Origin: Acidimicrobiia bacterium
GTDB taxonomy: Bacteria; Actinomycetota; Acidimicrobiia; Spongiisociales; JAENVV01
Reading direction: 5' to 3'
Length of the DNA stretch: 64,000 nucleotides
Assembly (NCBI GenBank): GCA_041586155.1
Contig: JBFHAT010000009.1
Location: forward strand, 20,826 to 84,825
The position numbers and the translations under genes were made by a program. This document shows positions 44,920-62,048 of this stretch, in pieces. Within the stretch, counting starts at the first letter, position 1, and the number at the start of each line of letters is the position of its first letter. The notes beneath the pieces were generated by a model. The model searched no databases. It was not told where the DNA came from and saw only the letters and a program-made list of their open reading frames with translations.

Positions 44920-46005
44920 TCACTCGTTCAGGGATGCCGCCGCGGCCGGTGCGGTGGTTTCGGTGGGGGTTGATCCGCCGGGGGCGGTCCCGTCCGGTGC
45001 CGTCCCATCGGGCGCAGTCCCATCAGGCGTGGTCCCATCTGGCGCCTCACCGGCCGCAAGGCCGCAATCGACGAGGGCCTCCTCGGCGCTGGCGCCACCA
45101 AACACGACCCGCTCGTAGAGGACGACCTGGGCGAGTTGATCCGCACTCAGGGCTTGACCGAAGCCGGGCATGTTCCCGAATCCCCCGGTGGGCTTGGCCG
45201 TGTCGCCGTACGTGGACCCGATCTGGGCGGTCCAACCGGCCGTACCCAACTCCACCCATGTGATGTGATCGCCACACCCGCTGAAGGTCGCGAGCACCGA
45301 GCCGCCGCTCAGCTGCGGTCCGGCTGCGCCTCCGGCGCCGTTCGGCATGTGGCATGAGGCGCAATTGGCTGCGTACACGTCGGCTCCGGCCGCCACGAGG
45401 TTCCCGCCCCCGCCGCCGCCTGGTCCGCCGGCGCCCTCGTAGGCGGTCAAATCACAGTTGACGAGCTCGTTGCGGAAGTTCACCGCCAGCTGACCTGCTT
45501 CGCCGCACTCGGGCCCCGCCGATCCGACAGTGATATAGCCCACGGCCATGATGGGGATGACGACGAAGAACGCCATGAGCCAGCTGGGCACGACCCCGTT
45601 CGTGCGCTCTTTGATGCCCACCGACGGGACCGTGGTGACCACTTCCCACTCCGCGGCCTCCTCCAATGAGACCGTCTCCGGTGGCGGCGGACCCTGAACC
45701 ACCTGAACACCGCCAGCGCCGGCGCCGGCCGCCGCCGGTACCGGGGCGGCCTCGGCAGGCGTGGGGGCAGCCTCGGTGGGGGCATCCTCGATGGTTGCCT
45801 CTTCGGCGGCGGCAGGAGCACTTTCCGCCGATTCCACGGCCGGGGCCGCTGCCGTTGCCGCAGGGGCGGCTCCACCTCCGGCCCATGCCTGCAGGATGTC
45901 ATCGACCGATCCGCCGGTGGCTGCGGCGCGGGCTTTCGCCGACCGCTCTACCAGCGACTCCGGTACGCCCAGTGTTGCTGCAGCCGCCGCCAGGGTCTCG
46001 CTCAT
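44920..46005 (-). CDS. Membrane-anchored monoheme class I cytochrome c with conserved N-terminal module and C-terminal (PDGTA)n tail
   Basis: Single CASCH. Central TM. N-terminus MSETLAAAAATLGVPESLVERSAKARAAATGGSVDDILQAW. Tail TPDGTAPDGTAPDGTAPGG. Confidence 0.7.
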   Translation of the reverse strand: MSETLAAAAATLGVPESLVERSAKARAAATGGSVDDILQAWAGGGAAPAATAAAPAVESAESAPAAAEEATIEDAPTEAAPTPAEAAPVPAAAGAGAGGVQVVQGPPPPETVSLEEAAEWEVVTTVPSVGIKERTNGVVPSWLMAFFVVIPIMAVGYITVGSAGPECGEAGQLAVNFRNELVNCDLTAYEGAGGPGGGGGGNLVAAGADVYAANCASCHMPNGAGGAAGPQLSGGSVLATFSGCGDHITWVELGTAGWTAQIGSTYGDTAKPTGGFGNMPGFGQALSADQLAQVVLYERVVFGGASAEEALVDCGLAAGEAPDGTTPDGTAPDGTAPDGTAPGGSTPTETTAPAAAASLNE

Positions 46006-46850
46006 TGCGACTCCACCAGGTATTGGACCAGGGCATCGAGGTCTTCGTCCGATAGGTATGCAACTGCCGGTTGCTGTGTGTCGGGATTCACGCTCGAGGG
46101 GTCGACGAGGAACGAACGCAGATAGGCCGGGTCGCTGGTCGGCTCACGGCTCCCGACGTGGGTGAGGTCGGGGCCGATTCGCTGGTGACCGAACGTGTCG
46201 CCCGCAAGCGCAGCAGACGTGCCCGGTTCGGTCACGGTGCCCAGGCCCACATCCGTGACAGCCGACCGCACCATCTGCGTATGGCAGTAGAAACAACCTT
46301 CCTGCACGTACACCTGACGGCCCCGTTCGGCGAGATCGGTGAGCACCGGGGTGGTGCCCGGCAGTTGGTCGGCTGCGACGCTTTGCGCATCCTGGGCGGG
46401 GAGCACGACCGCGACCAACACCCCCAGCAAGAACAGCAGCACGATACCGACGACGTAGAGCTCCGGCCTGTCGACTCTCCCGGTGAGCACCGGCGCGGCG
46501 CCGGCACGGCGGTCGACGACGACGACGCCGCCGGGGTTCGGCGGCACCTGAGCCGATTGTGTCGAGGCTGCAGCGGTGGTCGCCGGCGCGTCGGCAGGAG
46601 CCTGGGCGGGCTGGGCGGACTCGACGGCCGGAGCCGGAGTCTCGCTCGCCGCTGCGATCTCGGCTTGGGCAGCCGCTTCGACCTGCGGAGCTGCGGCGGC
46701 GCTCCCCGAAGGAGCGGAGCCTCCGGCTGCCCAGGCCGCCAAGATATCCTCTACTGGAACGCCGGCCGCCTGCGCCCGCGCCTTCGCCGACCTGAGCACC
46801 AGCTCCTCAGGTCCTCCCATTGCGGCAGCGGCGGCAGCGAGGTCGCTCAT
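46002..46850 (-). CDS. CcoO/FixO-like monoheme cytochrome c (cbb3 oxidase subunit II homologue) with N-terminal module
   Basis: ATG 46850 forms an ATGA overlap with the CcoN-like stop. YVQEGCFYCHTQMVR matches CcoO YVREGCYVCHSQMIR. N-terminus MSDLAAAAAAMGGPEELVLRSAKARAQAAGVPVEDILAAW. Confidence 0.7.
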   Translation of the reverse strand: MSDLAAAAAAMGGPEELVLRSAKARAQAAGVPVEDILAAWAAGGSAPSGSAAAAPQVEAAAQAEIAAASETPAPAVESAQPAQAPADAPATTAAASTQSAQVPPNPGGVVVVDRRAGAAPVLTGRVDRPELYVVGIVLLFLLGVLVAVVLPAQDAQSVAADQLPGTTPVLTDLAERGRQVYVQEGCFYCHTQMVRSAVTDVGLGTVTEPGTSAALAGDTFGHQRIGPDLTHVGSREPTSDPAYLRSFLVDPSSVNPDTQQPAVAYLSDEDLDALVQYLVESQ

Positions 46851-48262
46851 GCGGCCTCCACGAGCACCTCTTGAGGGGCTGCCGCCCCGCTGGTAACGGT
46901 CCTCCACAGGTTGAGCACCATGATGATCTGGGCGGTGGCGACCACCAGCACGGCCAACAGCGCGAGGATGCCCAATGTCCGTGTGGAAGAGAGGGTGTGA
47001 GCGAATCCCTCGCCGACGCTGGCGAAAGCACCGGTATACGCCCCGGCCAGCCAGGTGTAGCCCGCCGCCAGCCCGGCGAGCCATGTGAATATCGTCACGC
47101 CGCCGACGCCCCAGAACATGAGTTGCAGCTGGCGACGGCCGGCCGTCTCGGAGTAGAGCTGGCGGCCGAACGCCTGCGGCAGTGCGTAGTAGAGGAACGC
47201 GGCGGCCAGCATCGACGCAGCTCCGTACAGGAGCCCATAGCGCGTGCCGGTGGAAAACTGTGTGAGGCCCACAACGGAGGCGACAGACCGGAAGCCTTCG
47301 GCGCTGCTCACGAATGAGAGGAACACCAGCACCACCGCGCCCGCAACGGCAAACCTCAAATCGGAGCGCTCGCGCACCAGCGACCACTTGCCTTGCAGGG
47401 TGCCGATGAAGTTGGCGAGCACCGCCAGGCCGGGCACGATCATGCCCATGGTGAAGATGATGGCCACCGACTCGATCCAGTTGGCGGCAGGCCCGTAGAT
47501 CATCGCCGCCGGACCCGTCCAGACCTGTGCGAACGCCAGCGACCAAAAGCCGGCCAGGGCGAGTGGACGGCTGAAGAGCGGGTTGTCGGTGACACGGGGG
47601 ATGAGGTAGTAGGCGGCTCCGATACCGACTCCCACCGACCACAGACCGACCATCCCGACGGTATAGAACGAGGTGGTCAACGCCGAACCGACACCGCCGA
47701 TCCACGGGTTGGCCCCCACCGCCGTCAACCCGACCAGCCAGATCAGGCCACCGACCACGTACCAGACGGAGATGTAGATACTCTCCACCTTGCGTTTGGC
47801 GATCGTCCTCAGTGCCACCGTCAGTGGCACCAGGTAGAACACGAGCAGCGCAAGGTCGAACCCCCAGTGGAACTCGCCCAGGAGCCGACCCTGGTTCGGC
47901 GAAGCGCCGGATGCGGTCAGTACGAGCGCGAGGACGGTGACCACCGCACCGGCCGCACCTGCCAGGCGAGCCAGGCCTTCCCCCCACATCTCAGTTGCGG
48001 TCAGCCTCGGCAGCAAGAAGTAGGCGGCGGCGAGATTGGTGAACGTCAGGAACCCGAACACGAGGGAATTGGTCGCCAGCGGAGCGAGCCGACCATACGA
48101 GAACAGGGGACTCGCCGCGCCGAATGTCGGGAACGCTGCTTTCAGTGCGGCCAGCACACCGACCACGGCGGCAACGGCGAGGAATGCCAGGGCGATGAGC
48201 ATGTGGGTACGCGCGGCGGAATCGAACTCGGCCACTCGGGTCGGATGCGATGTGGCAGCCAA
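46847..48262 (-). CDS. CcoN-like heme-copper-oxidase subunit I homologue lacking all canonical His ligands
   Basis: 471 aa, 12 predicted TM. Segment-by-segment similarity to cbb3 CcoN: YGRLAPLATN vs GRLRPLHTN, TIAKRKVESIYISVWY vs TLAKRKVKHIYVGNWF, YYLIPRVTDNPLFSRPLALAGFW vs YYFVPK...YSYRLSIVHFW, WTGPAAMIYGP vs AGPHHLHY. Only 4 His in the protein, none at ligand positions. Start is TTG 48262 or ATG 48202. Confidence 0.65.
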   Translation of the reverse strand: MAATSHPTRVAEFDSAARTHMLIALAFLAVAAVVGVLAALKAAFPTFGAASPLFSYGRLAPLATNSLVFGFLTFTNLAAAYFLLPRLTATEMWGEGLARLAGAAGAVVTVLALVLTASGASPNQGRLLGEFHWGFDLALLVFYLVPLTVALRTIAKRKVESIYISVWYVVGGLIWLVGLTAVGANPWIGGVGSALTTSFYTVGMVGLWSVGVGIGAAYYLIPRVTDNPLFSRPLALAGFWSLAFAQVWTGPAAMIYGPAANWIESVAIIFTMGMIVPGLAVLANFIGTLQGKWSLVRERSDLRFAVAGAVVLVFLSFVSSAEGFRSVASVVGLTQFSTGTRYGLLYGAASMLAAAFLYYALPQAFGRQLYSETAGRRQLQLMFWGVGGVTIFTWLAGLAAGYTWLAGAYTGAFASVGEGFAHTLSSTRTLGILALLAVLVVATAQIIMVLNLWRTVTSGAAAPQEVLVEAA

Positions 48263-48542
48263 GCCGCGCTCCTGTCGTCCGTCGTTCCGCGCTGAGACGC
48301 GCGGCTCCAGCTCGCGCCCCCGCCTTCATCCTGGGTGCGCTGCGGTCGGCATCATACTGGCTCGATCGTCGCCGCCGTCGGTTGCATCGCTCGATCGGCA
48401 ACACCCACGCTGGCGATTCAGCGCTCACCCCCGATTGTGCTACTAATCTCCTGCACGTGGGGCCCGCTACGGCCGTGCCCCCTTGTGAGAGGCGGACGAG
48501 AACAGACAGTAGGGCCTCGCGGTCCCCGACGAATCTGAGAGC

Positions 48543-49184
48543 ATGAACCGACTGGCGCACCTCGACGAATCGAAACGAAGAATCGGCGGTCTTGCGTTAT
48601 TGGCCATGGGCATCGTCGCAGTGGCGTTCGGCGTCATCTGGGCGCATTTCGCGCTGTTCCCACAGACCGAGTTTGTCGACGGGGTAGAGATCCCGGTCGA
48701 GGTCGACACGTTCCTCGGAAACATTCCCCGGCACTGGCTCTCTGTCACCTTCGGCCAGATCGTCGCCACGGCCGGATCGCAGTTCATCGTCGCCGGAGCC
48801 CTCATGGCGTGGGTGATCGGCAAGACGATGACGTGGGCCAGGGCCGGCATTACAGCATTCATCGCGTGGTTCGAGCTGGTGCTCTACTTCGGCATCATTC
48901 CGTCCGAGTGGCTCAACCTGGCGCAAGGCCCCCTCGCCTGGACTTCACAGAAGCAGTTCGTGGTGATCCCCGAGTCGCTGTCGTGGATCGTCCTCAACAA
49001 CGAGGTGGCCGTGAGCATGGCCGCCCTGAAGGACGCCATCTCCGGGGGTTATCACATGGTGGCGTTGGGAGCTGCCATCCTGTTTGCCTACAAGATCCAG
49101 GACTTTGGCAAGCAAGACAAGGTGGCCACGCCCGAAGCCAAGCTGTCGCCGTACGGAAGGCCTCTCACGAAAGGCAGCCGCTGA
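48543..49184 (+). CDS. Hypothetical polytopic membrane protein, first gene of the bc-type operon
   Basis: 213 aa. Stop overlaps the ferredoxin start (TGATG). Confidence 0.5.
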   Translation: MNRLAHLDESKRRIGGLALLAMGIVAVAFGVIWAHFALFPQTEFVDGVEIPVEVDTFLGNIPRHWLSVTFGQIVATAGSQFIVAGALMAWVIGKTMTWARAGITAFIAWFELVLYFGIIPSEWLNLAQGPLAWTSQKQFVVIPESLSWIVLNNEVAVSMAALKDAISGGYHMVALGAAILFAYKIQDFGKQDKVATPEAKLSPYGRPLTKGSR

Positions 49185-49636
49185 TGGCCGGAGGACGAGA
49201 CGTCTGGTTCGAGACGCCCCCCATCCGCGACGACTATCAGCTGGCGGTGGTCGACGGCGATTACCTCAAAGCCCAGGTCAAGCCGAAGCAATTTCTCCAC
49301 ATCGACCAATCCGAGTGCATCCTCTGTGAAGGTTGCGTAGACATCTGCCCGTGGAAGTGCATCCACTACCTCTCGCTCGACGCAATCCATGAGGCCAAAG
49401 GCGTCGTCGACCCCAATTCCGACCCCGATGCCATGGGGTTCTTCCTCGTCGATGAGAACGAGTGCACCCGCTGTGCGCTGTGTATCGACCGCTGTCCGAC
49501 GGGCGTGATCACCCTCGGCAAGTTCGAAGGGTCGTTGTCGGATGAAGCGGCGCAGGCCGATCTGATCGCGCCCTGGGACATCGACACCGGCCAGCGCGAC
49601 TACAAGAACGGGTACGTCTACGGATTGCGGATGTAG
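49184..49636 (+). CDS. 2x[4Fe-4S] ferredoxin-domain protein
   Basis: [12 protein letters not shown] and [12 protein letters not shown]. About 150 aa. ATG 49184. Confidence 0.7.
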
Positions 49637-49650
49637 AGGCGGAGGAACAG

Positions 49651-50439
49651 TTGGCCAACGGAAACGACAACACCACATTGCTGGAGCGAGCCAAGGGGCT
49701 CGCCACCGAAACGTGGGAACGCCTTCATGGCAGCCAGGTGATGGAGTCGATTCTCCGGCCTGGCTCGCCTTTCAAGAAGGGCTACTCCGACTCACCTCGC
49801 AACCGTTCCTACGTGGTCATGAACAACGTGCTGTATCACCTCCACCCGGTGAAGGTGAAACGCCATGGCGTCCGCCTTTCCTACACACTGTGTCTGGGTG
49901 GATTGAGCTTCTTCCTTTTCATCCTCCTGACGATCACGGGCATCTTCTTGATGTTCTATTACGCCCCCACCGCCGAGGCGGCGTACGCCGATGTGCAGGA
50001 GCTCTCGACCTCGGTTGCATTCGGCTCGCTGGTCCGCAACATGCACCGATGGGGAGCTCACTTCATGGTGCTCACGGTGTTCCTCCACATGTCGCGGGTC
50101 TTCTACCACGGCGCCTACAAGCCACCACGCGAGTTCAACTGGGTCGTCGGAGTCATCTTGTTGCTGCTGACGCTGCTGCTTTCGTTCACCGGTTACCTGC
50201 TGCCGTGGGATCAGCTGGCGCTGTGGGCTGTGACCGTTGGCACCAACATGGCCGGGTTCGTGCCTGTCTTCGGCGAACAGGTCAAGTTCGTCCTGTTGGG
50301 CTCGTTGGAGGTGTCCGCCGACACCATCCTCAGGTGGTACGTTGGCCACGTGCTGTTCTTGCCGTTCATCATTGTGATCTTCATGGCCGTTCACTTTTGG
50401 AGGGTGCGCAAGGACGGCGGCATCTCGGGGCCCCTGTAG
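49651..50439 (+). CDS. Cytochrome b6-type (split cytochrome b N-terminal, 4-helix, dihaem) subunit
   Basis: His pairs in [18 protein letters not shown] and [25 protein letters not shown]. 262 aa. Confidence 0.8.
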
Positions 50440-50448
50440 GAGACTGAG

Positions 50449-51432
50449 ATGGCTGAGATTCCCGAACATCTACTTCGCAGATCGGCCGAAGCCAAGGCCA
50501 AAGCTCTGGGCCTGCCGGTCGAGCAGGTGCTTGCCGAGATGAAAGGCGAAGCGCCGCCCACCCCGACAACCGAGCCCTCGGTTGCGGAGGCGTCGGCTCA
50601 GGCTGCGCCGGTTGCGGAGGCGTCGGCTCAGGCTGCGGATGCGCCAGTTGCGGAAGCGTCGGCTCAGGCTGCGGATGCGCCGGTTGTCGAGCCGGTGGCC
50701 GACACGGCAGCGGAGCCCGCCGCCCCGGCGGCTGTGGAGCAAGCGGTGCCCGCACCGGTGGCTACCGCCGTCACCGAACCTGCACCCGAACTTCCCGCAG
50801 GTGATGTGGAGCCGCCTTCGGGCAACGGTGGGCCAGCCGGCAACGGAGGCCGGGTCGCCACGTCCGTATCGCCCCGTCCGGTGGCTCCCGCGGAGAGCGG
50901 GCCGGAAGGCGTCCGGACCCAGCGACTGCTGACCGTCGTCAAGGCCAAAGCGATCCAGCAGGTCAAGGCCGAGCCCACCGACAAGGTCAGCACCTGGCCT
51001 CATCTGATGATCGCCGAATTCGCCTCGCTCCTGGCGGTGACTGCGGTACTGCTCGTGCTTTCGGTGATTCTGCAGGCGCCGCTCCTCGAGGCGGCCAACT
51101 TCAACGCCACGCCCAACCCCTCCAAGGCACCCTGGTATTTCCTCGGTCTGCAGGAGCTGCTGTCGTACTTCGATCCGCAGATCGCCGGTGTCACCGTGCC
51201 GACCATCGTCGGGTTGATCGGATTCATGGCGATTCCGTACGTCGACCGAAACCCGTCCATCAAGCCCTCCGATCGCAAGTTCGCCATCTTCATGTACACC
51301 TTCTTCTTCATGGGCTCGAGCGTCTTGACGATCCTCGGTGTGCTCTTCCGGGGCCCCGGCTTCAACTTCACCTACCCGTGGGCCGACGGGATCTTCTTCG
51401 ACGACCTCAAAGACTGGGTGAACTTCGAATGA
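50449..51432 (+). CDS. Cytochrome bc subunit IV (PetD / cytochrome b C-terminal domain) homologue with N-terminal module and (VAEASAQAADAP)x3 linker
   Basis: ANFNATPNPSKAPWYFLGLQELL matches the PetD PEWY region. N-terminus MAEIPEHLLRRSAEAKAKALGLPVEQVLAEM. Confidence 0.7.
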   Translation: MAEIPEHLLRRSAEAKAKALGLPVEQVLAEMKGEAPPTPTTEPSVAEASAQAAPVAEASAQAADAPVAEASAQAADAPVVEPVADTAAEPAAPAAVEQAVPAPVATAVTEPAPELPAGDVEPPSGNGGPAGNGGRVATSVSPRPVAPAESGPEGVRTQRLLTVVKAKAIQQVKAEPTDKVSTWPHLMIAEFASLLAVTAVLLVLSVILQAPLLEAANFNATPNPSKAPWYFLGLQELLSYFDPQIAGVTVPTIVGLIGFMAIPYVDRNPSIKPSDRKFAIFMYTFFFMGSSVLTILGVLFRGPGFNFTYPWADGIFFDDLKDWVNFE

Positions 51433-52328
51433 CCACGAACCAGCTGATCTTCGTCGTGATTGCCGCAGTCCTGCTGTTCGCAGCGCTGGCTGCGTTCGGC
51501 ATTGCCTTCCGCCAGTCGAAACGAGACGATGAATGGCGTCGAAATCTCGAAGAGGACGCCCGCCGCAGTGACGCCGGCGTACCAGCAGGGGTGATTGCGG
51601 CCACGCGAGCATCCGCCGGAGCCGCCGACGCATCGGCCGAGGCATTGGCAGTGGAAGCGCCGGATGTCGAGGAGCCGGTCGAAGCGGTTCCCGCGTATCA
51701 GACCGTAGAAGCGCAGCGCGTCCTCGAGGTCAGCCCCGAAGAGGCGGGCATACTTCGGCGCCAGTTCCTCAACCGGGCGATGGCCGGCACGTTCTTCTCG
51801 GTGTTGGGGATCTTCGGCCTGGCCAGCTTTGGCTTCATGTGGCCCCGCGTGAAGGGCGGGTTCGGCGCCGACATCGACGCCGGGGATGCGGATGAGATTC
51901 GTAACGCTGTCTTCAACGCCGACGGCTCGGTGACACCGTTGTTCTGGCCGGAAGCAAAGTCGTGGATCGTGCCCATCTCCGACTCGCAAGAGGCAGGGTC
52001 GCAGTTCTCGGACAACGCGACGGTGGCGGGGGGCCTCGCGGCCCTATGGCAGAAGTGCGTTCACCTCGGTTGCCGGGTGCCGTGGTGTCAGACCTCGCAG
52101 GGTTTCGAGTGTCCGTGCCACGGCTCGAAGTACAACGTCCTCGGGGAGTACGAGGCCGGACCGGCGCCGCGCAACCTCGACCGGTTCGTGGTCGAGATCG
52201 ACGAGAGCAATAGGTTCATCGTTCGCACCAGCCAGGTGATCCCCACCGAACGTGCTCCGGCCAAGAACGCCCGGTACCCGCTGGGACCGAGCTGCATCAC
52301 GATCAGCGCGACCCAAGAGGAAGCCTGA
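51429..52328 (+). CDS. Rieske [2Fe-2S] iron-sulfur subunit
   Basis: ATG 51429 (ATGA overlap). N-terminal TM. CVHLGC ... CPCHGS boxes. Confidence 0.85.
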   Translation: MTTNQLIFVVIAAVLLFAALAAFGIAFRQSKRDDEWRRNLEEDARRSDAGVPAGVIAATRASAGAADASAEALAVEAPDVEEPVEAVPAYQTVEAQRVLEVSPEEAGILRRQFLNRAMAGTFFSVLGIFGLASFGFMWPRVKGGFGADIDAGDADEIRNAVFNADGSVTPLFWPEAKSWIVPISDSQEAGSQFSDNATVAGGLAALWQKCVHLGCRVPWCQTSQGFECPCHGSKYNVLGEYEAGPAPRNLDRFVVEIDESNRFIVRTSQVIPTERAPAKNARYPLGPSCITISATQEEA

Positions 52329-52332
52329 CCAG

Positions 52333-53754
52333 GTGAGCAGCATCGTCATCGTCATCGTGGCGTTGGGCGCCCTCGGCTGGCTCGCCGTGCTCGTTGCATC
52401 GGGACTGCGCGGCCGCAACAAGGACGAGGTTCCTCCCAACCTCGATCCGTTCAAAACGGACGCCGAGTTGGAAGGTCGGCGCCTCGACCGTGTCATGTCG
52501 GTGGCGGTGATCTTGTCAGGGTTGCTGGCGATCTCTCTGCCGGTGTATTGGCTGGGCGAGATCGGGCGCCAGGAGGGCTTCGAAGAGCAATTCCACGAGG
52601 AGTCGGTCGAGCGCGGCCACGAGCATGTCGAAGAGTTCCAATGTGGCGCATGCCATGGTGCCGCTCTCGACGGGGGCGTGGCCGGGTTCGTGGACAAGCG
52701 CAGCGGGGTGGCCGTGTCGTGGGCGGCTCCGGCGCTCAACGACATCTTCTACCGCTACGACGAGGATGAGGTTCGCTTCTGGATCGTCTACGGGCGTCCG
52801 GGGAGCCCGATGCCTCCTTGGGGCCTCGACGGTGGTGGGCCCATGAACGAACAGCAGGTCCAAGAAGTCATCGATTACCTGAAGACGGTCCAGATCCCTC
52901 AGGCCGAGGCGGTGGCGGCAGTCGACACTCGCGTCGACCTGGCGCTGAGCAGCCTCGACGGCGCCGATGCCAGCGTGGACGCCCAGATCGCATCGCAACA
53001 AGAGCTGATCGCCGAGATCGAAGCAGCTCCCGGCCAGCTGGCGGCGTTGCGCCCCCTCGCCGAAGCCGCTGCGGCCATTCTCGCCGGCGCATCCGGGGTG
53101 GACGTCGACGAGGACGGTGTCACCGACCGAGTCGAGGCCGAGCTCTCCGCAGTTTCCGAAGACGCAGCCGCCATCGTCGCCGACCTGGCCCCGATCGTGC
53201 TCGACCCTCGAAACCCGGCTACGTCACCCGACGGGACGTCTGACCTGCGGGCCGCCGAGACATACGTCGCTGCGCTCGAGTCGGAGGTGTCGGCTCTGCA
53301 GCTCACGGTCGACCGCCAAGACGACCTGCTGGCCACCGCTGAGGAGGGCCTCGAGTTTCTCCAACAGGCGGGTGAGCAACGCAAGTACGCCGTCGATTTC
53401 CAGTCGGTGGCCGATGCCACGTTCGGCGGTGACGTCGACCAGGCACGAAGGGCCGTTGGCGTGTATCAGGCCTACTGTGCCCGCTGCCACACGTCAGGGT
53501 ATTCGGAAGGCCCGGCCTTCACGCAGGAGGTCGGATCGGGAGCCCTGGGACCTGCCCTGTGGGAGGGTCGAGCCAACGTTCAATTCCTCGATGCGGAATC
53601 GATGAAGAATTTCATCGCCAACGGCTCGGAGCTGGGAGTCGGGTACGGAGTGAATGGTGTCGGGCGCGGGTACATGCCCGGATTCGGACAGGTCCTGCCC
53701 GAAGAGGACCTCGACCTGCTCATCCAGTACTTGCGAGGGGAGGTGCTTCGCTGA
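52333..53754 (+). CDS. Membrane-anchored dihaem cytochrome c (cytochrome c1-equivalent) with long Ala/Asp-rich insert
   Basis: GTG 52333. CGACHG and CARCHT. 473 aa. Confidence 0.75.
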   Translation: MSSIVIVIVALGALGWLAVLVASGLRGRNKDEVPPNLDPFKTDAELEGRRLDRVMSVAVILSGLLAISLPVYWLGEIGRQEGFEEQFHEESVERGHEHVEEFQCGACHGAALDGGVAGFVDKRSGVAVSWAAPALNDIFYRYDEDEVRFWIVYGRPGSPMPPWGLDGGGPMNEQQVQEVIDYLKTVQIPQAEAVAAVDTRVDLALSSLDGADASVDAQIASQQELIAEIEAAPGQLAALRPLAEAAAAILAGASGVDVDEDGVTDRVEAELSAVSEDAAAIVADLAPIVLDPRNPATSPDGTSDLRAAETYVAALESEVSALQLTVDRQDDLLATAEEGLEFLQQAGEQRKYAVDFQSVADATFGGDVDQARRAVGVYQAYCARCHTSGYSEGPAFTQEVGSGALGPALWEGRANVQFLDAESMKNFIANGSELGVGYGVNGVGRGYMPGFGQVLPEEDLDLLIQYLRGEVLR

Positions 53755-54116
53755 TGCGTGAGCTGATGCGAGACATCCTGTCTCAGAATCTGTTGTTCAC
53801 GGGGATCTTCCTGTTCGTGGTGTCGATGCTGACGTTCTTCGGCACCGGCTACCTCATCACCGCCACCAACCTGGGCAAACGGCTCGCGTTCCTCGTGACG
53901 GGCGCCGGGATCTTCGGCTGGGGGGTTCTGAACTCTCTGCTGTTCGTGCTCTATGCGCCTCGCGGACCGAGGCCCGAGAACTTCGAGGGGCTGAACGCCT
54001 TCGAGATTCGGATCCTCCCGCTCACGTTCATGCTGGCATCCGCCATCCTGTTCGCCATGTTCCTGGTCGCCCTCAACCGCTACGAAGCCGACCAGAACCG
54101 TCAGCTCGAGTCCTGA
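53754..54116 (+). CDS. Small 3-TM membrane protein, last gene of the bc-type operon
   Basis: ATG 53754 overlaps the cytochrome c stop. 120 aa. Confidence 0.5.
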   Translation: MRELMRDILSQNLLFTGIFLFVVSMLTFFGTGYLITATNLGKRLAFLVTGAGIFGWGVLNSLLFVLYAPRGPRPENFEGLNAFEIRILPLTFMLASAILFAMFLVALNRYEADQNRQLES

Positions 54117-54155: not shown

Positions 54156-54785
54156 GTGAAAAAGGGCACAATCCCGAAAGCGACGGTGGCCCGGCTGCCG
54201 ATGTACCTCCAGTGCCTCGAATCGCTCCCTGACTCGGCCACCACCGTCTCCTCCGAAGCGCTGGCTGAGATCGCGGCAGTGACTTCCGCCAAGGTCCGCA
54301 AAGACCTGTCCTGTCTCGGCTCGAATGGGGTGCGTGGTGTGGGCTACGACAAAGAGCAGCTCTGCGTCCTCATCCGCCGTGAGCTCGGTCTGACGCAGGA
54401 TTGGCCCGTCGTCATCGTCGGGGCGGGAAATCTGGGCACGGCGCTGGCCAACTACGGGGGATTTGCCACCTCCGGCTACCGGATCGTGGCGATCTACGAC
54501 GCCGACCCCGACAAGATCGGCACCTTCGTCGACGGCCTGGCCATCCGCCCCGTCGACACCCTCGACGCCGACATCACAGCGGAAAAAGTCGCGATCGGCA
54601 TCATCACCACCCCGGTCGGAGCCGCGCAAGAAACGGCGAGTCGCTTGGCGGCGGCAGGGGTCCGGTCCATCCTCAACTTCGCACCCGTCGTGGTTCGTGT
54701 TCCATCCTCGGTGCAGGTTCGTCACGTCGACCTTGCCACCGAGCTCCAGATCCTCAGCTACTACTCGCTGCGGTCGGCAGGCTGA
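54156..54785 (+). CDS. rex: Redox-sensing transcriptional repressor Rex
   Basis: N-terminal wHTH (PKATVARLPMYLQCL), Rossmann VVIVGAGNLGTALANY. 209 aa. Confidence 0.85.
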   Translation: MKKGTIPKATVARLPMYLQCLESLPDSATTVSSEALAEIAAVTSAKVRKDLSCLGSNGVRGVGYDKEQLCVLIRRELGLTQDWPVVIVGAGNLGTALANYGGFATSGYRIVAIYDADPDKIGTFVDGLAIRPVDTLDADITAEKVAIGIITTPVGAAQETASRLAAAGVRSILNFAPVVVRVPSSVQVRHVDLATELQILSYYSLRSAG

Positions 54786-61053: not shown

Positions 61054-61137
61054 TCCTCCCATCTCGGCCGACGGCGGCCGTTTTGGTTGTTCGTCTTTTA
61101 CGTTCCTAATCTGGCGGCCGAGTAGAGAGGATTACGG

Positions 61138-61575: not shown

Positions 61576-62048
61576 TGGCACAGCCCGAGCGGGTGCCAGG
61601 AGTGCTGACGGCATCGATCGGCAAAGTGGCGCGCTGGGCGCAGACACGCTCGATGTTTCCGGCCACGTTCGGTCTCGCATGCTGTGCCATCGAGATGATG
61701 GCAACCGGCACCGCCCACTACGACCTGGCTCGGTTCGGTATGGAGGTGTTTCGCGCCTCGCCCCGCCAGGCCGACCTGATGATCGTGGCGGGGCGAGTCT
61801 CCCAGAAGATGGCTCCGGTTCTCCGCCAGGTGTACGACCAGATGCCCGAACCCAAATGGGTCATCTCGATGGGCGCTTGTGCTTCCACGGGCGGGATGTT
61901 CAACAACTATGCGCTCGTGCAGGGCGTCGATCAGATCGTGCCGGTCGACATCTACGTACCCGGCTGCCCGCCGGGCCCGCAGTCGTTGATGCACGGCATC
62001 CTCACCCTCCACGACAAGATCATGAGCGGAGAACTGGCCCGTGTCTGA
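61575..62048 (+). CDS. nuoB: NADH-quinone oxidoreductase subunit B
   Basis: ATG 61575 overlaps the nuoA stop. [10 protein letters not shown] and GACASTGG Fe-S cluster N2 motifs. Confidence 0.9.

Follow-up and report, generated by a model that had tools for sequence, protein, structure and literature searches.

The DNA considered here, hereafter the window, is a stretch of 64,000 nt with a GC content of about 65% from an Acidimicrobiia bacterium (contig JBFHAT010000009.1 of assembly GCA_041586155.1, positions 20,826 to 84,825 of the forward strand). Between positions 44920 and 54116 it contains a divergent cluster of ten respiratory genes, with the oxidase genes on the minus strand and the genes of a bc-type complex on the plus strand. 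Three of the encoded membrane proteins begin with the same short domain, which we refer to as the module: a membrane-anchored monohaem cytochrome c (44920-46005, minus strand), a CcoO-like monohaem subunit (46002-46850, minus strand), and subunit IV of the b6-type complex (50449-51432, plus strand).

The module and its linkers

The three copies of the module are encoded at 45871..46005 (minus strand; residues 1-45 of the cytochrome c), 46719..46850 (minus strand; residues 1-44 of the CcoO-like protein), and 50449..50550 (plus strand; residues 1-34 of subunit IV). An earlier note on this DNA had proposed that the three proteins share the N-terminal pattern E.L[VL].RSA.A.A.A.G.PVE.[IV]L..W. All three N-termini read exactly as quoted there and represent a homologous module of 34-45 residues. 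The core of the pattern is common to the three, but the final Trp is present only on the two oxidase-side copies and is Met in subunit IV; hence we speak of a Trp subtype and a Met subtype. Identical residues number 31/44 between the cytochrome c and CcoO copies, 15/34 between cytochrome c and subunit IV, and 17/34 between CcoO and subunit IV. In phmmer comparisons of each module with all 1165 segments from the six reading frames of the window, nothing but the two sister copies matched, with E-values of 1e-10 and 4.5e-11 between cytochrome c and CcoO and of 7e-5 to 9e-3 towards subunit IV; the next segment scored 0.06 or worse. A hidden Markov model built from the three N-termini found no fourth copy in the window, which contains exactly three. 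We reject chance or low complexity as the origin of this likeness: the copies are one homologous module.

At the nucleotide level, the modules of cytochrome c and CcoO are 67% identical, and identity towards subunit IV is 50% and 52%. Where residues are identical, the same codon is used in 9/31, 7/15, and 4/17 positions for the three pairs in the above order. Since DNA identity is this low and most identical residues have different codons, the three copies in the window are not the result of a recent duplication, which the earlier note had named, as partial duplication with identical DNA, as an alternative source of the resemblance.

The core motif of the module is hPExL[LV]xRSAxA[KR]AxAxGxxVxxhLAx[WM]xG. 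The full unit, as delimited by internal copies in tandem arrays (see below), has about 45 residues and consists of H0 (xxLLAAAAxxG), H1 (hPExLVxRSAEAKAKAxG), and H2 (xxVxxVLAx[WM]xG); residues common to both subtypes are P, E, R-S-A, A, G, and L. AlphaFold2, given the cytochrome c copy of the window and 18 aligned units, predicts a three-helix bundle with helices at residues 2-12, 16-30, and 34-42 and a predicted local distance difference test score (pLDDT) of 89.5. H0 is missing from the N-terminal copy of subunit IV and from some internal copies, which are predicted to form a helix-loop-helix (pLDDT 85-90). Judging from these models, the surface buried under H0 in the three-helix form would lie open in the shorter one.

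Each module is followed by a linker rich in Ala, Pro, and Glu and then by the first transmembrane (TM) helix, as the earlier note had described; composition, charge, and TM positions all agree with this layout. In the cytochrome c, the acidic linker and juxtamembrane segment (45580..45870, minus strand) covers residues 46-142, of which residues 46-120 contain 36% Ala, 16% Pro, and 15% Glu with a net charge of -12; the TM helix follows at 143-161. In the CcoO-like protein, the linker spans residues 45-112 and the TM helix residues 131-149. The acidic, Ala/Pro-rich linker of subunit IV (50551..50907, plus strand) covers residues 35-153, has a net charge of -14, and precedes TM helices at 186-204, 245-263, and 278-296. 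Taken together, the three linkers have about 70-120 residues, 29-36% Ala, 15-19% Pro, a net charge of -5 to -14, and almost no Lys or Arg. The subunit IV linker contains a 36-bp tandem repeat at 50579-50686 (3.2 copies, 88% matches by Tandem Repeats Finder), which encodes PVAEASAQAADA three times; across subunit IV homologues, the distance from the first module copy to a GVRTQRLL motif varies from 77 to 253 residues (further module copies included), with 38% identity. The linker appears to grow by slippage, with the adjoining module remaining fixed.

The first TM helix of each carrier has two Lys or Arg residues before it and none after it. CcoO, anchored cytochromes c, and subunit IV have an established topology that places the PEWY-type loop and the haem c domains on the outer face of the membrane. 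This positive-inside pattern, together with the required outer location of the haem c domains and of the loop, predicts that the modules lie on the cytoplasmic side of N-in anchors, in agreement with the earlier proposal.

The module is not a named domain in Pfam, NCBIfam, or PDB. Scans of the full proteins against Pfam and NCBIfam left it without a match at E<=0.01; with the three modules and 18 units at E<=10, only scattered single matches appeared, such as MIF (0.21) and DUF1490 (0.036). A sequence-profile search of PDB gave nothing below an E-value of 0.39. Structural neighbours included none that was significant (RNA polymerase omega scored about 3.8, and only designed helical toroids scored higher), and Foldseek gave nothing with E<1. 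A search of the literature by motif string and by topic found no published account of the module. We conclude that it is a new, undescribed domain family that has been added to known respiratory complexes.

Several candidate identities were considered and rejected. The tautomerase/MIF family (PF01187) matched one module only locally, over profile positions 10-44 (E 0.21). Its 24.7 bits in the protein P0148 were summed over three repeats, no single stretch of which passed, and the match to the PDB tautomerase 5unq (E 0.39) covered 21 residues of a beta-alpha-beta fold incompatible with the all-helical prediction; we regard these matches as a local helix-loop coincidence. The module does not qualify as a member of the peripheral-subunit-binding domain (PSBD; E3_binding, PF02817) or of ANTAR (PF03861), the RNA-binding three-helix domain of Rv1626, NasR, EutV, and AmiR. 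Resemblances to UBA, SAP/HeH, Rho_N, HhH, and PSBD were considered but surfaced in none of the searches and were dropped. A Tat signal, suggested by an RR in subunit IV, is excluded because the other two copies have no twin Arg, there is no h-region, and internal copies occur in arrays.

Carrier proteins and neighbouring genes

The C-terminal parts of the three carriers are clear members of known families (CcoO, CcoP, and PetD/QcrC/ExtQ) and have the same N-in topology. Unlike in the canonical families, however, the models begin only at about residue 129 in CcoO, about 184 in subunit IV, and about 204 for the cytochrome c domain, so that module and linker form an N-terminal add-on not covered by any of them.

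The CcoO-like protein has 282 residues. It matches FixO (PF02433) over residues 130-273 with 63.6 bits (cut-off 29.6), and it scores 72 against a cut-off of 200 with the NCBIfam equivalog model. It has one CxxCH motif, at residue 186, and an N-terminal TM anchor, and its gene directly follows ccoN; its true start is not that of the 661-aa open reading frame (ORF) but the ATG at position 46850, in ATGA overlap with the stop of CcoN. Judged by these features, it is a divergent member of the cbb3 oxidase subunit II family. Since position 8 of the TIGR00781 model aligns to residue 129, the first 128 or so residues are an addition to the canonical family.

The monohaem cytochrome c (361 aa) occupies a CcoP-like position in the operon, and its gene overlaps the ccoO stop by 4 nt. 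It has one CxxCH motif, at residue 215, and matches Cytochrome_CBB3 and Cytochrom_C of Pfam over residues 204-297; FixP_N (PF14715), the N-terminal domain of CcoP, was absent from its Pfam matches at E<=0.01. The 3' end of this gene also carries a 15-bp tandem repeat (44979-45045, 4.5 copies) that encodes (A/T)PDGT in an extracytoplasmic C-terminal tail.

Subunit IV (327 aa) matches Cytochrom_B_C (PF00032) with 28.5 bits (cut-off 20.7), with matches to ExtQ and b6f subunit IV in support; position 6 of the ExtQ model aligns to residue 184. Its PEWY-type loop reads PSKAPWYF and is 93% conserved, and the gene starts 10 nt after the cytochrome b6 stop. Profile, three TM helices, loop, and gene order all identify it as a PetD-like subunit IV of b6f/b6c type.

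The other seven genes of the cluster include one on the oxidase side, encoding a CcoN-like haem-copper oxidase subunit I (46847-48262, minus strand) without a module. It matches COX1 (PF00115) with 133 bits and the ccoN model TIGR00780 with 154 bits against a cut-off of 583. Since the latter score is far below the cut-off, the profiles classify it as a divergent C-family enzyme, whose substrate would be O2 or NO.

The first gene on the bc side encodes a conserved membrane protein of 213 aa (48543-49184, plus strand) with no module and no family match, present in 74 of the 80 related loci described below. It is followed by genes for a 2x[4Fe-4S] ferredoxin-like protein (49202-49636, plus strand; Fer4 families; in 76/80 loci, mean identity 72%) and for the cytochrome b6-type subunit (49651-50439, plus strand; PF00033, 158 bits). 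The ferredoxin-like protein has no TM segment above threshold and no CxxCH, and is presumably cytoplasmic; the bc-type complex would then be an unusual one with a presumably cytoplasmic Fe-S subunit. The ferredoxin-like gene lies immediately upstream of that for cytochrome b6, and the pair is kept in 76-79 of the 80 loci. The cytochrome b6 also passes the cut-off of the NCBIfam ExtP model (304.9 bits; cut-off 290), whose name comes from a selenite/tellurite-reduction operon.

Downstream of subunit IV are genes for a Rieske iron-sulfur subunit (51378-52328, plus strand; start codon uncertain; PF00355 and NCBIfam models of the b6f Rieske protein), a dihaem cytochrome c (52252-53754, plus strand; start uncertain; CxxCH at 131 and 409; Cytochrome_CBB3 and Cytochrom_C), and a small membrane subunit with three TM helices, the last gene of the operon (53754-54116, plus strand; in 58/80 loci). 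None of these three carries a module in the window. There is no soluble cytochrome c gene within the cluster, all of whose cytochromes c are membrane-anchored. Directly downstream of the bc operon lies a gene for a Rex-like regulator (54156-54785; Put_DNA-bind_N and CoA_binding), followed by a FAD oxidoreductase gene; nuoA (at 61126) and nuoC (at 62026) also flank the cluster.

Distribution, conservation, and subtypes

The module is widespread in one clade. A full HMMER scan of 1.84 billion protein cluster representatives with a profile of the module yielded 435 representatives at E<1e-3 and 151 at E<1e-10. In addition, when a single genome from each GTDB species was scanned with the subunit IV subtype as the query, at least 222 loci were confirmed, and the best 80 of them were examined. 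The earlier note had considered that the module might show no conservation beyond this genome, which these numbers contradict. The best 80 loci all come from metagenome-assembled genomes (MAGs), with no cultured organism; most are labelled Acidimicrobiia, including Candidatus Spongiisociaceae, and a few bear other labels. Across these loci the ten-gene cluster is conserved. In loci of at least 18 kb, module-bearing ORFs occur at the same three positions in 37/37 cases, with one ORF broken in five, and the module stands at residue 1 in 120/120 of the best subunit IV homologues.

Among 117 subunit IV homologues, identity is 91% in the module, 84% in the membrane domain, and 38% in the linker. 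Over 39 genomes, the subunit IV module is 93% identical in amino acids and 78% in nucleotides, and modules of the Trp type are 66-70% identical. Nucleotide diversity at the first, second, and third codon positions is 0.12/0.04/0.49 in the subunit IV module and 0.23/0.16/0.57 in the cytochrome c module. By these sequence comparisons the module is under purifying selection, and it is a stable, selected part of both complexes throughout an uncultured clade of Acidimicrobiia. The hosts themselves are conserved to different degrees, with whole-protein identities in the clade of 66-82% for the bc proteins and 34-45% for the oxidase proteins. Three further segments are 88-92% identical across the clade: residues 32-80 of the N-terminal extension of cytochrome b6, the ferredoxin-like protein, and the juxtamembrane residues 151-187 of subunit IV. 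The cytochrome b6 extension (49651-49890) and the juxtamembrane segment (50899-51009) are candidate cytoplasmic docking surfaces.

Cytochrome c and CcoO copies resemble each other more within a genome (83% identity) than between genomes (67%). In about 6 of 39 other genomes (L013, L062, L074, L050, L046, and L069), their DNA is 85-99% identical, which implies episodic and recent gene conversion between the adjacent modules; in the other genomes, the window included, synonymous sites between the two copies are randomised.

Such near-identity in some genomes, the Ala-rich sequence, the variable copy number, and the 36-bp repeat in the adjoining linker are what would be expected of a functionless, neutral low-complexity repeat that is spread by duplication and gene conversion. 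We consider this explanation very improbable, since diversity at third codon positions is 4-12 times that at second positions, the module is fixed at all three sites in every one of the long loci, the linkers diverge freely and the module does not, and the copies in the window differ at most synonymous sites.

Carrier chains have tandem arrays of 1-7 module copies joined by Ala/Pro-rich linkers. The module is not limited to the three kinds of carrier seen in the window: homologues of the small subunit encoded last in the bc operon also have it, P0143 with 7 copies and P0148 with 3. In addition, the module is found in an unclassified family of multipass membrane proteins (P0276, P0282). In locus L081 (8001-13291; also L082 and L083), the gene of P0282 is convergent with a caa3 operon of the order COX2-COX1-COX3-COX4 with a haem O synthase gene; the operon encodes COX2 with a cytochrome c domain, COX1, COX3, and COX4_pro, with a UbiA-family gene nearby. 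From this gene context, P0282 may be an unrecognised accessory protein of the caa3-type oxidase. Every carrier that could be classified is a membrane protein of a respiratory complex or is encoded beside the operon of one, and no soluble carrier was found among the 150 module matches listed.

The arrays also bear on another explanation, in which the module has no specific partner and serves as a device for biogenesis and topology, a fast-folding domain with an acidic arm that holds the N-terminus in the cytoplasm, or as a steric spacer in the form of an entropic brush. Such a role would suit the strong acidity and disorder of the linkers, the N-in orientation of the carriers, and the invariable position of the module ahead of the first TM helix. 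We nevertheless judge it quite unlikely: internal copies in an array contribute nothing to topology, canonical CcoO and subunit IV insert without a module (the family models start at about 129 and 184), and neither a conservation of 91-93% nor an invariant R-S-A motif would be needed.

The two subtypes are divided between the complexes. The Trp subtype (..ARA..LxxW) occurs on 45/45 oxidase-side copies, namely 12/12 in CcoO, 31/31 in cytochrome c, and 2/2 in the P0282 family. Subunit IV copies have Met, Leu, or Ile in 195/211 cases (Met 185, Leu or Ile 10) and Trp in 14/211. Two loci depart from the usual arrangement. In L085 (5015-8793), CcoN and CcoO are fused into a protein of 641 aa, in which CcoO has no free N-terminus, and there is no ferredoxin gene; there are five module copies on the cytochrome c and one on subunit IV. 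The other locus, L084 (1699-3792), encodes P0145, a subunit-IV-like orphan that retains the APWY motif and has five modules of the Trp type. It is flanked by small membrane proteins of 139 aa and 44 aa, and no cytochrome b6, Rieske, or oxidase gene is present in the 13.6 kb fetched. Rex, FAD, SAM_HAT, and CLP1_P neighbours of the window cluster recur in this locus.

A possible docking function

A small folded domain, flexible arms, and variable valency together point to a binding function. We propose, with about even confidence, that the module is a multivalent protein-protein docking handle at the cytoplasmic face of the b6-type menaquinol:cytochrome c reductase and of cbb3-like oxidase subunits. 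Its link to the first membrane helix would be a disordered arm of about 70-250 residues, acidic and rich in Ala and Pro, so that 1-7 copies per chain are presented multivalently on flexible arms from both complexes. In this way it would capture a cytoplasmic partner common to the complexes or else a counterpart module on a different respiratory complex, and the capture would concentrate or co-assemble the complexes of the cytochrome-c-dependent chain.

The nearest architectural analogue is found in the E2 component of 2-oxoacid dehydrogenases, in which a small helical PSBD and lipoyl domains on Ala/Pro-rich arms dock partner enzymes. The likeness consists of a helical domain of about 35-45 residues, long Ala/Pro-rich linkers, and variable copy number; it is an analogy of design, and, as mentioned above, the module failed the PF02817 test.

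Four observations weigh against a docking function. First, a conserved cytoplasmic partner was sought within the cluster, and none could be linked to the module. Second, the conservation of the module tracks that of its host complex: because the bc proteins are overall far more conserved than the oxidase proteins, the fact that the subunit IV copy hardly varies is no special evidence for a partner and should not be over-read. Third, the concerted evolution of the cytochrome c and CcoO copies is due at least in part to gene conversion and not to co-adaptation. Fourth, AlphaFold2 modelling of a natural two-copy N-terminus predicted disordered linkers and no packing between copies (predicted TM-score 0.32), although with a shallow alignment this is a weak test.

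The two versions of the docking proposal, direct tethering and recruitment of a shared factor, appear about equally likely, and each taken alone is rather doubtful. In the former, a sharpened form of the supercomplex tether suggested by the earlier note, Met-type modules of the bc complex would hold reductase and oxidases together from the cytoplasmic side by binding the Trp type on the cbb3-like oxidase and, through the P0282-family protein, on caa3 oxidases. The membrane-anchored cytochromes c might then pass electrons without a soluble carrier, a possibility that we hold just as tentatively. The division of subtypes by complex would fit such a tether, as would the restriction of the module to respiratory membrane proteins, including one beside a caa3 operon, the encoding of both complexes in one conserved divergent cluster, the membrane anchoring of all cytochromes c in a cluster without a soluble cytochrome c gene, and the multivalency of 1-7 copies; in L085, where CcoO has no free N-terminus, the cytochrome c bears five copies. 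On the other hand, of the three carriers, CcoO and cytochrome c are in any case parts of the same complex, arms of 70-250 residues are very long for a structural tether, and the disparity between the Met type (about 93% conserved) and the Trp type (66-70%) is unexpected for a tight complementary pair, though it tracks host conservation. Moreover, the 14 subunit IV copies of the Trp type, the five Trp copies kept by the orphan P0145 in a locus whose 13.6 kb examined show neither a cytochrome b6 nor an oxidase gene, and the absence of predicted packing between tandem copies all speak against it.

In the latter version, a shared soluble cytoplasmic factor, which could be an assembly or cofactor-insertion chaperone, a regulator, or a redox protein, would be recruited to every complex of the cytochrome c chain, and tandem copies would raise avidity. 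The architecture resembles that of a recruiting domain on Ala/Pro-rich arms, as in the PSBD of E2, and core residues are common to both subtypes. The persistence of the module on the orphan membrane protein of L084, in whose 13.6 kb no bc or oxidase gene occurs, is also in favour, and the face that the models suggest would be exposed in the two-helix form could serve such binding. However, no candidate partner was found, none of the 150 matches listed is a soluble carrier, and the conserved neighbours (the Rex-like regulator and the ferredoxin) are only circumstantial evidence.

Few membrane enzymes have been studied as thoroughly as bc-type reductases and haem-copper oxidases, and how they associate is debated in bioenergetics. 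The actinobacteria Mycobacterium and Corynebacterium have an obligate bcc-aa3 supercomplex (e.g., PMC8523172 and PMC5040959). The chain of the window is similarly actinobacterial and has a dihaem cytochrome c subunit in place of a soluble carrier, so that reductase and oxidase must stay together; unlike the bcc-aa3 chain, it combines a b6-type reductase that has a ferredoxin-like subunit with a neighbouring oxidase of cbb3-like type. The bcc-aa3 complexes are joined by transmembrane and outer-face contacts, and they are not known to have a tethered cytoplasmic module.

Another comparison is offered by cytochrome c1 of Paracoccus denitrificans, which has an acidic domain rich in Ala, Glu, and Pro that has been discussed for supercomplex formation. 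Both cases involve a long acidic low-complexity extension on a subunit of a bc complex. However, the cytochrome c1 domain is periplasmic and contains no folded conserved module, whereas the extension considered here is predicted to be cytoplasmic and ends in a folded domain.

In its strongest form, the tether would consist of complementary Met and Trp docking partners on arms that we estimate at 20-30 nm, clustering the reductase with the terminal oxidases from the cytoplasmic side. This we consider unlikely, more so than tethering in general; a cytoplasmic-module principle of supercomplex organisation of this type is, as far as we know, not known from any other respiratory chain.

A clade of environmentally common uncultured Acidimicrobiia has added one undescribed conserved cytoplasmic domain to two respiratory complexes, and the same domain is found on an unclassified membrane protein beside a third, the caa3-type oxidase. 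If the module mediates either association of the complexes or recruitment of a common factor, it would provide a modular, genetically tractable handle on the organisation of the respiratory chain and a ready-made tag for pulling respiratory complexes from enrichments. At the minimum, it defines a new domain family and accounts for the mis-annotation (e.g., as TonB) or truncation of these genes in many MAGs.

Two minor observations concern the database entries themselves. Several MAGs that bear the cluster (L003, L008, L018, L028, L030, and others) carry the label Acidobacteriota or Gammaproteobacteria, or no more than "bacterium"; probably the bins were mislabelled or the contigs are contaminants. 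In addition, a word-indexed protein search with the three modules returned 28 short fragments, and many entries (P0008, P0009, P0013, P0197-P0209, and many more) are truncated or frame-shifted just past the module, one of them being named "energy transducer TonB". Assembly and gene calling seem to fail here on the linker, which is GC-rich and repetitive.

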